NCBI GenBank assembly: GCA_965207445.1
Contig: CBDBLX010000002.1
Coordinates: 704,001 to 768,000 of the forward strand
DNA length: 64,000 bases
Direction: 5' to 3'
Source: Nitrosopumilus sp.
GTDB lineage: Archaea > Thermoproteota > Nitrososphaeria > Nitrososphaerales > Nitrosopumilaceae
The position numbers were made by a program, and so were the translations under genes. Under the pieces are notes generated by a model. That model saw only the letters and a list, made by a program, of their open reading frames with translations, searched no databases and was not told where the DNA came from. Of this stretch, positions 8,892-19,937 are shown in pieces. Within the stretch, counting starts at the first letter, position 1, and every line of letters begins with the position of its first letter.

Positions 8892-9341
8892 TCACTCCAT
8901 CTGTTTGAACTCTTTTTTACTCATTCGAAGGATTACCTTTTCACCAATTCCCCATATGTCTGTCTTTGAGACAATCTTTGTCTTTGTTAATCCATCTGAG
9001 ACTTCTATGGATTCTAGCTCTTCTGTTTCTGGATTTTTATGTATGCGTTTTACTTTTCCTATCTTGTTTTGATCTCCATCTGTGACAGTCGTTCCCACTG
9101 TAATGGGTGGTCTGCTCAAATGCAGTGTCTTTTCTGAGAACTTGTCGATATAATCACTTGTTAAATAGTAGTCTTTGCTAAATCCTTGATGTACGGTCAC
9201 GCCTGAAACTACTAGTGTCTCTGGGTTTATGTGTATGTGCTTTATCTTGCCATACTCCACTCCCTCTCTATCGATGACTTTTCTTCCTCTGAATGTGTCG
9301 GCAGTTACTCCTTGTGTATCATTGAGTTTTGTTGTTGACAT
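8892..9341 (-). CDS. Tandem PRC-barrel domain protein
   Basis: Two 'G..V.D..G..G(K)(I/V)..IH.NPET' repeats. Confidence 0.8.
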   Translation of the reverse strand: MSTTKLNDTQGVTADTFRGRKVIDREGVEYGKIKHIHINPETLVVSGVTVHQGFSKDYYLTSDYIDKFSEKTLHLSRPPITVGTTVTDGDQNKIGKVKRIHKNPETEELESIEVSDGLTKTKIVSKTDIWGIGEKVILRMSKKEFKQME

Positions 9342-9422
9342 GATTATACATTACATAGTTTGCTTATCAATACGCGCATTGGCATTATTATACTAACATA
9401 TGATTAAATTATTTGATTAAAA

Positions 9423-9797
9423 ATGACATACATGCCACACTCCAATGTAAAGAATCGTGCAGATTTATCTACTACCATATCTAGAATGATCTTAATCACA
9501 AGAGGCAGAAAGACGGGAAAACCTCACAAAGTAGAGCTCACAGGCGTCACATACTCCGGTAAGGTATACTTTTCAAGACATAAACCAAATTCGGATTGGT
9601 ATCTTAATGCTACTGCAAATTCTGATGTGGCTGTACAGTTTGATAATCGTCTGATTGCTGGCACTGCACATGTGGTCTGTGATCCAAAATTATTGCAACA
9701 TATATCAGAGTTAAAATATCCTGGTGAGAAGCGGGCAAATGAAAAGAGAGTTGCAATAGAGGTGGAGTTAATTACATCTAGTGAGTTTAGAAATTAA
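9423..9797 (+). CDS. Deazaflavin (F420)-dependent nitroreductase-like split-barrel protein
   Basis: 'LITRGRKTGKPH', 'SDWYLNATAN' motifs. Confidence 0.75.
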   Translation: MTYMPHSNVKNRADLSTTISRMILITRGRKTGKPHKVELTGVTYSGKVYFSRHKPNSDWYLNATANSDVAVQFDNRLIAGTAHVVCDPKLLQHISELKYPGEKRANEKRVAIEVELITSSEFRN

Positions 9798-9827
9798 TCT
9801 ATATTGTATCCTTACGTACTTACTAAC

Positions 9828-10060
9828 GGATCTTCTGCGTTAATCGTTGGTATCTTGCACGCTAATATCATTGCCGTTTGTGCAACATTAATGCGCTACG
9901 TATTATGGCCGTCGTTGCATGAATGCTCAAGACCCTTGGATTCACATGACAAGGTTGCAACCGTTCAGTTATGTATTATCAAAAGTTTATTCAACCACGT
10001 CATGAGTACCTACAGAACTTTACCAGATTTCCGTTACCACACGATTAATGCAAAATATCA
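9828..10060. mobile_element. ~233-bp non-autonomous TIR element (MITE type B), copy 1
   Basis: Highly similar to 11747-11977; imperfect 17-bp TIRs. Confidence 0.8.
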
Positions 10061-11157
10061 GCCTACAGTCCTACTTTATATTCATTCACGTAACTCATAG
10101 AACAATGTCACGTGTAAACTTGCCCGTCGCATTAGGCTTGGTTCTGAACAGATATTGTAACAGTAAAAAAACAGTCAAAATACAATGTATGATCTCAGTA
10201 GTCAGTTTTGACGTAAAAACAGAATTTGAGAAGCCAATATTGGGCTATCAAGTGAGAGTAAAACAGAGTACCGAGTTTGATGGATTCATAGATAATATTT
10301 GTGCGGTCTCACATAACGATGATGAGTTGGGAATGTTCCATTTGGTGCAACAGCAAGATGAGTTCTATCTAATTAGCAGCGAACGGGCAGGAGTATTCAG
10401 GTACATCATATTAAAAATTTTCAAATATCTTTATCCAAAAATTATATTTTCATTCATTCATTCGAGTTCCATGTGTCAAATTTTGTCAGACTTTGAGACA
10501 AAACACAATGTTGAGCTAATGAAAAAGAAATCCATTGAGAAACAACTGTTTGGAATCTCTCCAAGAACTGAAATTTCATACAAAACACAAAAAACAGGCA
10601 GAGAGTACCCAAAAGTAAAAGATACTTTTGAAGAAGCGCAAATGCAAGATTTATGGATTGAAAAAATACAAGTGTTCAGTAATGCCAATAAAAAAACACA
10701 ATTTACCATCTCCAGACGAGGAGAGGTATCTATTGAAAAAGGTACGTTTGATACTTTTTTCTCTACAATTCTTGCGCCAATTATTCAACAAAGTAAACAA
10801 AAACGTAAACAGTTTGAAAATAGGAGTAGGAGCGAACAATCAGATAAAAGACCCAAACCGCTGATTGTGCGATTTGGCAAAGATGTTTTTAAGACAACGA
10901 AAACCAGAAAAGATTTTTCTAAAATCTTGGGCAAATACACAAAATGTAATTATTCTATAATTCACAATGGAAATCCTCATGTGTATTTATCTGTCTTGGA
11001 TAGAATTGATAACTCTTCATTCTCAGTACGAACAATTGGGGATAGTTCTTTGTTGCTGATTCCACAGATTAAAACTTCTGCATTATCTTTGCTAAGATTT
11101 TCCGAATTTCTTGTTTCTTCATTTCATGAAGGAGACATTCAGAACTATGAAACCTAA
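10048..11157 (+). CDS. Uncharacterised cargo protein (likely start 10105 or 10189)
   Basis: Long intact ORF; ATG at 10048 lies within the MITE TIR; overlaps the start of the downstream nuclease pseudogene. Confidence 0.8.
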   Translation: MQNISLQSYFIFIHVTHRTMSRVNLPVALGLVLNRYCNSKKTVKIQCMISVVSFDVKTEFEKPILGYQVRVKQSTEFDGFIDNICAVSHNDDELGMFHLVQQQDEFYLISSERAGVFRYIILKIFKYLYPKIIFSFIHSSSMCQILSDFETKHNVELMKKKSIEKQLFGISPRTEISYKTQKTGREYPKVKDTFEEAQMQDLWIEKIQVFSNANKKTQFTISRRGEVSIEKGTFDTFFSTILAPIIQQSKQKRKQFENRSRSEQSDKRPKPLIVRFGKDVFKTTKTRKDFSKILGKYTKCNYSIIHNGNPHVYLSVLDRIDNSSFSVRTIGDSSLLLIPQIKTSALSLLRFSEFLVSSFHEGDIQNYET

Positions 11158-11612
11158 AACTTCTGAACTAATTAAAGAATGCAGAGATGCAAAATAAAAT
11201 GAGTTTGATGCATACTATCAAACCGTAACCATATCTGTAGGTTTGAAACATTTGTTTGCAAGTTCATAACCATGTGTTTTCAAAGTTAATGAACTATCCA
11301 TGAAAACTAGTGACAACACAGTAACTCCAGATGCTATATTTCAATGCGATAATGATACTGTTGGAATCGTCTGTGAAATAAAAACGGCGCTACCCAATGA
11401 TGAAAAAATACTTTTTAAAGACATAGAAGAACAACTGGAAAAATATTCCAAAATAGAAACTCGCTGAAAAAGTCACAGACAAAGATTACGAATACAAAGT
11501 TAAATGGTCATCAAAAGCATCTAAAAATCGAAAAGAGTACTTGTTAGATAAATTATGTGGAAAAGAAAAGTCTCAAATTACTAGTGGAATACAAAAGAAA
11601 TTAACTGACTGA
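11147..11612 (+). pseudogene. PD-(D/E)XK nuclease pseudogene
   Basis: MKPKTSELIKECRDAK*NEF...ASS*PCVF...VTPDAIFQCDNDTVGIVCEIKTALP...EQLEKY...ETR*: PD, ExK and QxxxY motifs; stops at 11195, 11267, 11465; Lys-rich open frame 11469-11612 may be the C-terminus. Confidence 0.7.
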
Positions 11613-11746
11613 TTTGAATCGGTTTTACTGGCCAAGTTAATTCTTAAATCGAAATATGAAGAAATGAGATCAGTTCCGATTGTATTTATTTGGATTTAAT
11701 TTCTGTAAGAATTGGAAATTTTATATTATATTGTTCTGTGACTTCA

Positions 11747-11977
11747 GAATCTTCTGCGTTAATCGTTGGTATCTTGCACGCTAATATCATTGCCGTTTGT
11801 GTAACATCAATGCGCCACGTATTATGGCCGTCGTTGCATGAATGCTCAAGACTCTTGGATTCACATGACAAGGTTGCAACCGTTCAGTTACGTATTATCA
11901 AAAGTTTATTCAATCACGTCATGAGTACCCACAGCACTTTGCCAGATTTCCGTTACCAACATTAATGCAAAAGACCC
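11747..11977. mobile_element. ~231-bp MITE type B, copy 2
   Basis: Direct repeat of 9828-10060; ends GAATCTTCTGCGTTAAT and ATTAATGCAAAAGACCC. Confidence 0.8.
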
Positions 11978-12023
11978 CTTACTAACGTAACATCTTTTAA
12001 TGCCGTATGAACATGTCAGTACA

Positions 12024-12155
12024 ATGAAAGCGAGATTTAGTAGTATATGCCCTGAATGCAATGATAAAATAAAGGCTGGAAGAGAGATCGTAAAAAACTC
12101 CAAAGATGTATGGGTTCACAAAGCATGTTCTGATATTGAAGACGAACTCCCTTGA
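12024..12155 (+). CDS. Small zinc-finger protein (43 aa; in-frame ATG also at 12000)
   Basis: MKARFSSICPECNDKIKAGREIVKNSKDVWVHKACSDIEDELP; CxxC...HxxC. Confidence 0.65.
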   Translation: MKARFSSICPECNDKIKAGREIVKNSKDVWVHKACSDIEDELP

Positions 12156-12380
12156 ATCAAAATCAGAATTGTATTTTTGCATATGGCGCAATTCCATTTT
12201 TGGCGTTTTATGTATATGGCCATTTTTATCTTTTGATCTGCTGTTGAGTTGTCTGTATTTAATTACTGTGTGTAATTAATTACTTGATGTTGATCTTGTA
12301 TTTAACTAACAATTGCGCTATTTTTGGGCAACGTCATTACTTGACGTAATTTATTTAAGTCGGGTTTGTGCATTAAAAAT

Positions 12381-18913: not shown

Positions 18914-19430
18914 CAGTACTCGGAAATGTGTCTCCCGCAGGCAGTAATTGGGCAGTTGAATGTGGGTTGAGCGGCCACTGAGTGCCGCTTTATCATGATT
19001 AGATAAAATCTATATTATAACGTCCTTGCCCGCCCCCTGTGAGTATTGGCAAAAGTGGACAGGTGCGCCGCAGGGAGGCGGGTACGTGGATACTAAATGT
19101 CTCATCAGCCGTCATGAAATCCGCAGGCGTCGGGTTCTCGTCCGGGCACAATGCGCGCTACGGGGTGCGGGAATGACTGGCAATCCTGGTCGAGATGTGT
19201 AGCCAATCCCTGACGGCGGAGTCCGCGGTCCGGAACCTCAAGAACATACGCACCGCGCCGTCGGAGAAATGGTTTCGCACCATGATGAACATGATCAGCC
19301 GGGACGGGGCGGAGGCCGCCTGCGGCATGATGGTGAGACTAACCGTGCGGCTGGCCAAGAAGCGCGGCATGGGTAGGAGGGGAAGCGTACTGATGGCAAT
19401 AGACAAGTACCTGATCGGGCAGTTCGACCT
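18914..19430 (+). mobile_element. Truncated ISH3-family IS (left end plus transposase N-terminus)
   Basis: CAGTACTCGGAAATGTG matches the intact ISH3 TIR at 43953 at 13/17; 'PSEKW...AKKRGM...AID' parallels 'PSENT...AKKHNM...AID'. Confidence 0.7.
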
Positions 19431-19937
19431 GGTACGTGACTTGCTACAATGTAACCGCCACGCAAAAGGTCTGGCTAGTATTAATGCATCTATACCTTGT
19501 CTGTCTTTTTTTTTTGATGCTGCAATCACCTTTGTTGATCTGGGATTGGATAAGATTACATCCGGATTTAATTTCTCCTTGAGGAATTTGTACATCTTAT
19601 ACCATACAGAGGATGATTCAATCACATACTTTGCACCGTCTGGAAATTTGACAAACTTTTTTTCCACAATTTTGTAATCACATTCTATCTTTTCATTTTG
19701 TAAAACTGTTCCATCAGATTGCATGATGGCAACCCGCATGAATTTTTTGTGAAGATCAATTCCGACAAAATACTCTTCAGGTGTCTTTGTCGATTTCTTT
19801 TTCTTCTTTTTCGTCACAGGGCTTGTAACTGTCTTCATATGTACACTTTTTTTACCCATAATCTGTTTGTTTGCATTTTTGGCTTTGTTATGGTTGGCAT
19901 CATCTAACCTACTTGATGTGCTTTTCTTTTTTTCCAC
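19431..19937 (-). pseudogene. IS110-family transposase N-terminal (DEDD) fragment, frameshifted and truncated
   Basis: 'VGIDLHKK', 'VIESS', 'NP', then frameshifted KTD..DA..LA and LLRGGYI..SHVP; C-terminal domain absent. Confidence 0.85.

Follow-up and report, generated by a model that had tools for sequence, protein, structure and literature searches.

A candidate DNA clamp-plus-nuclease gene pair, present as a decayed copy within a composite transposon of a Nitrosopumilus sp.

GAPS4 is an anti-phage system in which a nuclease and a partner protein form a 2:2 complex; the partner is predicted to ring DNA, DNA damage is the trigger for degradation of DNA, protection from phages requires both genes, and the system is reported as not being a toxin-antitoxin (TA) system (PMC13748975). 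DNA-binding rings are formed by RdgC, and the same fold occurs in RexA, a protein of phage exclusion, and in Iml3/Chl4 (PMC11077077). The antiviral systems of archaea are poorly catalogued. Close to a third of the genomes of archaea show no antiviral system beyond CRISPR and restriction-modification (R-M) (PMC12988326). Here we describe a pair of genes, open reading frames (ORFs) 1 and 2, in 64,000 nucleotides of Nitrosopumilus sp. (assembly GCA_965207445.1, contig CBDBLX010000002.1, positions 704,001 to 768,000). We refer to this whole stretch as the window, to the genome of 2.61 Mb in two contigs as G000 and to the contig as C2, so that the window is G000:C2:704001-768000. Our analysis leans, not strongly, towards reading the pair as the dead copy of an undescribed clamp-plus-nuclease module, likely a defence against viruses or plasmids that would act by direct sensing of DNA.

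The frame of ORF1 is open from 10048 to 11157 on the forward strand and comprises 369 amino acids (aa) counted from its first ATG. Because the ATG at 10105 is where the homologues and the database gene call P0002 (350 aa) start, while the ATG at 10048 falls within the left end of a miniature inverted-repeat transposable element (MITE; 9828-10059), the start is most likely at 10105 and the protein 350 aa long. The features of the pair are as follows.

10075..10081, forward strand: TATA-like sequence TTTATAT, ~27 nt upstream of where ORF1 probably starts, read from the sequence.
10105..11157, forward strand: ORF1, intact; studied through homologues, AlphaFold2 (AF2), Foldseek, VIA-align and a predicted interface.
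11147..11467, forward strand: 5' part of the ORF2 pseudogene, residues 1-105, with the PD-(D/E)XK core, two nonsense stops and a deletion junction at ~11457-11465.
11457..11612, forward strand: 3' remnant of the ORF2 pseudogene in a different frame, its last ~50 residues and the end of the winged-helix region.

By the established spacing rule for leaderless-type starts, the position of the TATA-like sequence suggests a start of that type. An earlier note, made by a model from the DNA letters, had described an intact ORF1 of ~320-370 aa with particular C-terminal motifs, and both frame and motifs were found again. It had also placed three in-frame stops (11195, 11267 and 11465) in an overlapping second gene with nuclease motifs. 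The overlap (ATG of ORF2 at 11147, within the 3' end of ORF1), the motifs (P61-D62, E77-x-K79 and Q96-x-x-x-Y100, the latter as QLEKY) and the nonsense codons at 11195 and 11267 were recovered; the supposed stop at 11465 is a deletion junction with a frameshift. There, at ~11457-11465, the sequence skips from homologue residue ~105 to ~280 with a change of frame, a deletion of ~175 codons, and ends at 11612. These lesions can be read directly in comparison with the intact homologues P0036 (329 aa) and P0051 (338 aa), the aligned pieces being 80-88% identical and the 3' remnant 88% identical to residues 288-338 of P0051. Since contigs of four runs from one sample cover 9942-11778 with zero differing letters among the contigs listed, assembly errors are unlikely as the source of the lesions, although the assembly may itself have been made from these runs. 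No RNA record holding the locus was listed, a result that has no bearing on expression. The nuclease is cut short by the stop at codon 17, and the deletion takes away most of the predicted interface (homologue residues ~157-250), so that, judged from its sequence, the window copy of the pair cannot work.

Both genes have relatives in other genomes. The ORF1 search yielded 34 hits, among them the protein of the window itself, with the remaining ones 44-92% identical, and ORF2 has 38 homologues that are 41-94% identical to an intact copy; neither gene is thus a chance frame. At an E-value of ≤0.001 the ORF1 family comprises 530 representatives among 50%-identity clusters. The linkage of the genes was observed directly. 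A nuclease gene lies immediately downstream at 8 of 18 loci found through ORF1 (one broken) and at all three loci found by a pattern scan (of which one is truncated and another runs into the end of its contig). Seven plasmid records matched, and the five examined, four haloarchaeal and one of Arthrobacter, all carry a downstream ORF2-family gene, three of these five genes having been recognised partly via an alignment that contained them; the Arthrobacter protein independently matches the Halosegnis one (E 8e-10). Among eight new loci found through the nuclease, seven have ORF1 directly upstream (one ORF1 looks frameshifted) and the eighth is an N-terminally truncated ORF2 remnant. Full-length ORF2 was never seen without ORF1 sequence upstream (7/7 full-length nuclease-first loci), and ORF1 often stands alone. 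Based on these gene arrangements we concluded that ORF1 and ORF2 are a conserved, coupled two-gene module, in line with the earlier note; neither of the outcomes that the note would have taken as refutation, ORF1 homologues that do not occur with a nuclease or a match of the pair to a described system or housekeeping function, came about outright.

The truncated remnant (L078:7116-8057, genome G304) lies without ORF1 just after RNA polymerase subunit genes and is a decayed copy. Three large GC-rich genomes of one genus (G236, G292 and G345, genus g11; loci L025-L032, L037-L040, L074-L077 and L081) hold at least 4-5 ORF1 copies each, many of them orphaned or decayed, and L077 carries a second ORF1 right after the pair.

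The second protein is predicted to be a nuclease. P-D plus E-x-K, read directly from the alignment, is retained in 27 of the 32 ORF2 rows aligned, of which one is probably a duplicate. The AF2 model of the intact homologue P0036 has a predicted local distance difference test (pLDDT) score of 85.6. Its top VIA match is XisH (2okf; Z 7.1, root-mean-square deviation (rmsd) 3.3, 125 aligned), followed by Avs3 (Z 6.3), AF1548 (Z 6.1) and BglII (Z 6.0), matches which are middling yet consistent with the motif; winged-helix matches lie C-terminally at residues ~210-300. The catalytic motif together with the predicted restriction-endonuclease-like alpha/beta core places ORF2 in the PD-(D/E)XK superfamily, and we regard it, from motif and model, as a nuclease of this kind whose C-terminal part is a predicted winged helix and which would cleave nucleic acid in a metal-dependent manner.

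ORF1, in which the earlier note had recognised no family, indeed has no Pfam or NCBIfam match, but a fold resembling RdgC and Iml3 is now predicted for it. The AF2 model (pLDDT 95) is laid out as an RdgC/Iml3/CENP-L-like domain at residues ~5-235 and a KA1/TBP-like C-terminal domain at residues ~245-345, the latter bearing the conserved motif HxGNP...D..D.S. For residues ~5-235, Foldseek returned Iml3 (E 4e-5), CENP-L (2e-4) and RdgC (1e-3), and VIA returned Iml3 (Z 9.2, rmsd 6.0, 179 aligned), CENP-L (Z 9.2) and RdgC (Z 7.6, rmsd 4.9, 187 aligned); several phage RdgC proteins are among the structural matches in BFVD. Residues ~245-345 match KA1/TBP-like domains with Z 8.2. ORF1 is thus predicted to adopt an RdgC/RexA/Iml3-like fold as a distant match, with VIA alignments of 179-200 residues at rmsd 5-6.

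Window ORF1 and the intact ORF2 of locus L002, hence partners from two organisms, were modelled as a 1:1 complex. The interface score ipSAE was 0.76 compared to 0.00 for the best control, contacts agreed by at least 88% between runs and the pLDDT of the partners was at least 80. Among reference pairs, 116 of 157 solved ones and 2 of 215 mismatched ones attained this mark, counts that are only roughly valid with the alignments used here. The model supports ORF1-ORF2 binding without showing it. The predicted interface comprises residues 242-323 of ORF1, including the near-invariant H287, N290, P291 and P320 and with them the best-conserved motif of the protein, and, on ORF2, the winged-helix region 195-250 and 298-305 plus residues 21, 24 and 157-168. 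The KA1-like C-terminal domain of ORF1 is thereby predicted to dock on the winged helix of ORF2.

These predictions suggest how an intact pair might act. ORF1 would be an RdgC-like DNA clamp that holds the ORF2 nuclease; as a dimer it would ring DNA and sense DNA ends or aberrant DNA, by analogy to RdgC, RexA and GAPS4. On meeting foreign or damaged DNA, ORF1 would release or aim ORF2, and the nuclease could then, by the same analogy, degrade the DNA of the invader or of the host.

A tightly bound pair with a nuclease might instead be a TA or addiction module, with ORF2 as a toxic DNase and ORF1 as the bound inhibitor that stabilises the carrier mobile DNA. The tight binding predicted, the upstream position of the partner gene and the location on plasmids and transposons all fit, as does the finding that full-length ORF2 was seen only behind ORF1 sequence while ORF1 orphans are common (10/18). 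However, the predicted interface lies on the winged-helix side, away from the catalytic residues 61-79, a clamp-like protein of 350 aa would be large for a plain antitoxin, and for GAPS4, which is built along similar lines, the authors report that it is no such system (PMC13748975). We regard a TA module as rather unlikely.

The earlier note had read the loss of the nuclease next to an intact partner as the inactivation of a toxic effector. This was not supported, as the per-site rate of change in ORF1 is no lower than in the dead ORF2. At 321 ORF1 sites the window has 16 derived substitutions and its closest relative (92% identical) 7; at 155 ORF2 sites both have 6, to which the window adds two stops. 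Because its per-site rate about equals or exceeds that of the dead ORF2, ORF1 of the window may simply be drifting. By a rough reckoning, the chance that two later lesions both land in ORF2 is ~10-25%. As far as these substitutions tell, a cassette decaying in its entirety is as good an explanation as a toxin being lost selectively.

A scan of hand-picked ORFs found R-M or defence-type genes no further than ~7 kb away at 9 of 32 loci. They comprise type IIG, type ISP and type I systems, a methyltransferase (MTase)-Mrr combination, two N6/N4 MTases, a DUF1156 MTase with HNH, DUF6997 with SIR2 and cas1, and AbiJ-N with a KAP NTPase. With MTase or R-M neighbours at 8 of 32 loci, and with a nuclease plus winged-helix layout like that of DpnI (Z 5.5) and AF1548 (Z 6.1), the pair could be a modification-dependent or R-M-accessory restriction enzyme of the DpnI/Mrr kind, with the winged helix as the reader of a DNA mark and ORF1 as the subunit responsible for specificity or loading. 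On the other hand, no MTase is constant as a neighbour and none lies within the transposon of the window, and ORF1 is predicted to occupy the very winged helix that would have to read the mark. We consider this explanation distinctly unlikely.

Several observations weigh against a clamp-plus-nuclease defence module. Enrichment of defence genes near ORF1/ORF2 loci, which the earlier note had proposed to look for, is not shown: a tblastn control with the same criterion placed 9% of G000 no more than 7 kb from an R-M-like match, compared to 2 of 32 loci with self-hits dropped. Pairing is not obligate, as 10 of the 18 ORF1-first loci are without a detectable nuclease partner (one at a contig end), and a catalytic residue is lost in 5 of 32 ORF2 rows. 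The ORF2 model has no Foldseek match at E≤0.001, and the fold matches of ORF1 are middling, with TM (template modelling) values of 0.26-0.34. In addition, the active site reported for GAPS4a is the non-canonical HGxD-SxK, whereas that of ORF2 is the canonical PD...EIK...QxxKY (PMC13748975).

The vehicle of the pair in the window can be read directly from the sequence and consists of the following parts.

9819..9827, forward strand: left 9-bp target-site duplication, an identical 9-mer being present at both outer ends.
9828..10059, forward strand: left MITE, in which the first ~130 nt of an insertion sequence (IS) are joined to its last ~78 nt; its inner end is degenerate.
11747..11977, forward strand: right MITE, a direct repeat of the left one, with its outer end near the IS terminal sequence.
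11978..11986, forward strand: right 9-bp target-site duplication, the identical 9-mer at the outer end.

The two MITEs are 96% identical to each other across 210 nt and 84-87% identical to both ends of a resident IS of ~2.1 kb, a full element of which lies at C2 position 2221233. Three full-length IS copies inspected likewise have 9-bp duplications, the same length as around the ORF1/ORF2 block, and 4 of 12 other IS-related loci inspected hold an intact transposase frame of 579-595 aa. The locus thus has the make-up of a MITE-flanked composite transposon: two non-autonomous IS-derived ends, an outer duplication and a cognate transposase in the genome. Because the target duplication is confined to the outer MITE ends, with degenerate sequence at the inner ones, the block of 2,150 bp carrying ORF1 and ORF2 most likely moved as a single composite transposon, so that the mobile cargo proposed in the earlier note appears well founded. 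An interpretation of the 210-nt repeats as attC-like sites of an integron was given up, as they match the two ends of the resident IS.

The transposase of the parent IS shares 25-27% identity with proteins that match DDE_Tnp_IS240 and SWIM. IS6-type pseudo-compound transposons, as described in PMC7986276, likewise have directly repeated IS-derived ends around passenger genes and an outer target duplication. Canonical IS6 elements have 8-bp duplications, repeats of 14 bp and mostly ~800 bp of length according to the same source, in contrast to the 9 bp, ~28-bp inverted repeats and 2.1 kb of the parent IS, which therefore lacks the canonical 8-bp duplication and ~14-bp repeats of IS6 (PMC7986276).

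The IS is multi-copy on C2 (e.g. 2221233-2223324, 2238824-2240915, 1719735-1721874 and 620884-623023), several copies being deleted or interrupted by other elements, and a further MITE derivative lies at ~1834380-1834600 of C2. Its transposase has a variable tandem repeat, a duplicated unit of ~30 aa plus DNGD/DNGG repeats, between a zinc-finger-like N-terminal part and the DDE domain. Contigs of lower depth from the same sample, with loose ends at 9827 and 11960, carry slightly different MITE copies with other flanks, which suggests further MITE insertions in co-occurring strains or relatives. At L033:4540-5817 and L041:4872-6248, in two other genomes (both of family f3), an ORF1 homologue adjoins or is one gene away from a related SWIM/IS240-type transposase, an echo of the window's vehicle. 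As the left-flank genes (8892-9797; PRC-barrel and F420-dependent reductase) and a short conserved stretch on the right (12022-12163) sit at different places in relatives of the same genus (e.g. G102 and G105), the insertion region is, by this comparison, rearranged in the lineage of the window. Elsewhere in the window, an ORF at 19158-19937 appears to run into unrelated sequence; we take it to resemble the N-terminus of an IS110-type transposase.

The distribution of the pair is patchy. Of 401 class-level genomes, 10 contain ORF1 and 11 contain ORF2, with G000 counted in both, and the pair is also present on haloarchaeal and Arthrobacter plasmids. A deep ORF1 profile run phylum-wide found only G000 among 401 genomes, with a lossy prefilter and in a draw unlike the class-level one. 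No ORF1 relatives were found in viral contigs or phage records by a search of limited sensitivity. Decayed copies recur (the window, L001, L029, L031 and L078), and transposases lie near many homologous loci.

Such transposases, and ORF1 orphans that persist, would also suit an accessory of recombination, repair or mobility, that is, an RdgC-like regulator with an XisH/NucS-like nuclease serving a mobile element or host DNA metabolism. Moreover, XisH, the top fold match of ORF2, is an excision factor, and RdgC regulates RecA-dependent recombination (PMC11077077). This role appears quite improbable, as the pair was not found in ~390 of the 401 class-level genomes and has repeatedly decayed, unlike housekeeping repair genes, and has no fixed tie to one element type.

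For the reading that we favour, a defence module of clamp and nuclease, the haloarchaeal plasmids offer a possible extension. At three loci (L045:10109-10759, L046:6245-7630 and L047:6255-7577) the nuclease motif is decayed and a co-oriented membrane protein is adjacent, whereas at the fourth haloarchaeal locus the motif is intact and no membrane protein adjoins. One of the membrane proteins has 216 aa; the two others, related to each other, have 440-461 aa and presumably a CorA-like C-terminal layout. A weak match of the 216-aa protein to PycTM (E 5e-4) was not taken as an assignment. These very few loci are suggestive of a swap of the effector to a membrane protein where the nuclease motif decayed. 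We tentatively raise, and hold as doubtful, the broader notion of a widespread and so far undescribed immune family of archaea and bacteria in which the RdgC/Iml3-like clamp would be the conserved sensor and the effectors swappable, usually a winged-helix-anchored PD-(D/E)XK nuclease and perhaps a membrane protein at the three haloarchaeal loci.

The window copy is dead, and its value is that of a pointer to a family: at least 530 clusters at 50% identity escaped the copies of Pfam, NCBIfam and PADLOC that were scanned. The family is directly testable through its predicted folds, its predicted interface and the intact pairs on plasmids of culturable Halosegnis (WP_276236300/299) and Arthrobacter (WP_224049921/922); P0007/P0036 at locus L002 is a further intact pair. 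The present analysis adds the assignment of ORF1 to an RdgC/Iml3 fold, a map of the interface, the composite structure of MITEs that carries the pair and the argument from drift, and the window illustrates how such cargo moves in ammonia-oxidising archaea via a MITE-flanked composite transposon. If the role in defence is true, the principle of a DNA ring joined to a nuclease, as in GAPS4 and RexA, would reach into archaea.

The pair appears to stand outside the described systems, as the earlier note had expected. Pfam and NCBIfam scans of the window proteins and their homologues gave zero family matches, and PDB sequence searches with both families gave nothing significant. Among 123 ORF1-family members, PADLOC gave one weak partial match (PDC-S19; P0142, E 2e-4, 61 residues); the PDC-S19 model matched in no control genome, and the match was not used as an assignment. 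A JetB match (E 0.008) was too weak to be taken as one. The scan showed no GAPS4 match in the ORF1 family with PADLOC 2.0.0, which contains GAPS4 models. No description of the pair was found in the literature on RdgC and defence or on archaeal defence, with subscription papers, supplements and the GAPS4 homologue dataset outside the scope of this search. RexA partners the membrane protein RexB, not a nuclease, and compared to RdgC, RexA and Iml3, ORF1 is predicted to carry one more domain, KA1/TBP-like and C-terminal, in which its conserved residues lie.

The closest known pair is that of MJECL33 (PF25924) and MJECL32 (PF27326), adjacent genes with no function on record in the searches made, on the large plasmid of Methanocaldococcus jannaschii in the order MJ_RS09135, MJ_RS09130. 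The equation of these locus tags with MJECL33 and MJECL32 was inferred and is supported by PF25924 on homologues of MJ_RS09135. As in ORF1/ORF2, the partner gene lies upstream of and overlaps the nuclease gene, and the MJECL32-type nuclease and ORF2 have the PD...ExK...QxxxY motif in common. The plasmid pair has an OLD-type nuclease as its neighbour, and a type I R-M system lies ~8 kb away. In the ESM Atlas, MJECL33 and MJECL32 came up as look-alikes of the two proteins, at 0.94 for both, a value of low recognition power for ORF1, and the PF27326 label is on only 30% of the matched cluster. The profiles of ORF1 and MJECL33 align end to end in hhalign (295 columns, E 1.3e-4, probability 53%, identity 15%), but a cross-search with hidden Markov models between the two was not significant (best E 0.03). 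According to precomputed Pfam labels, PF25924 is on none of the 34 ORF1 hits as opposed to 13 of 13 MJECL33 homologues, and all 38 ORF2 hits are likewise without a Pfam label; the Pfam copy available for scanning gave MJ_RS09135 and MJ_RS09130 no family and appears to be without the PF25924 and PF27326 models. No relevant paper in the literature searched names MJECL33, MJECL32 or AF0896. From these alignments and labels we regard ORF1/ORF2 as probably a distant sister clade of the MJECL33/MJECL32 pair rather than a strict member.

In function, the closest analogue is GAPS4, which was compared through its published description. Both are systems of two genes carried by mobile elements, in which a PD-(D/E)xK nuclease is docked on a partner of the DNA-ring type (PMC13748975; for ORF1/ORF2, as predicted). 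The GAPS4 nuclease docks on the helical domain of the ring subunit (PMC13748975), whereas here the ring-like ORF1 is predicted to dock on the winged helix of the nuclease, and the nuclease gene comes first in GAPS4, as inferred from its naming, whereas the partner gene comes first in ORF1/ORF2. Because ORF2 is without the HGxD-SxK motif, we do not file the pair as GAPS4, which it resembles in design and not in motif.

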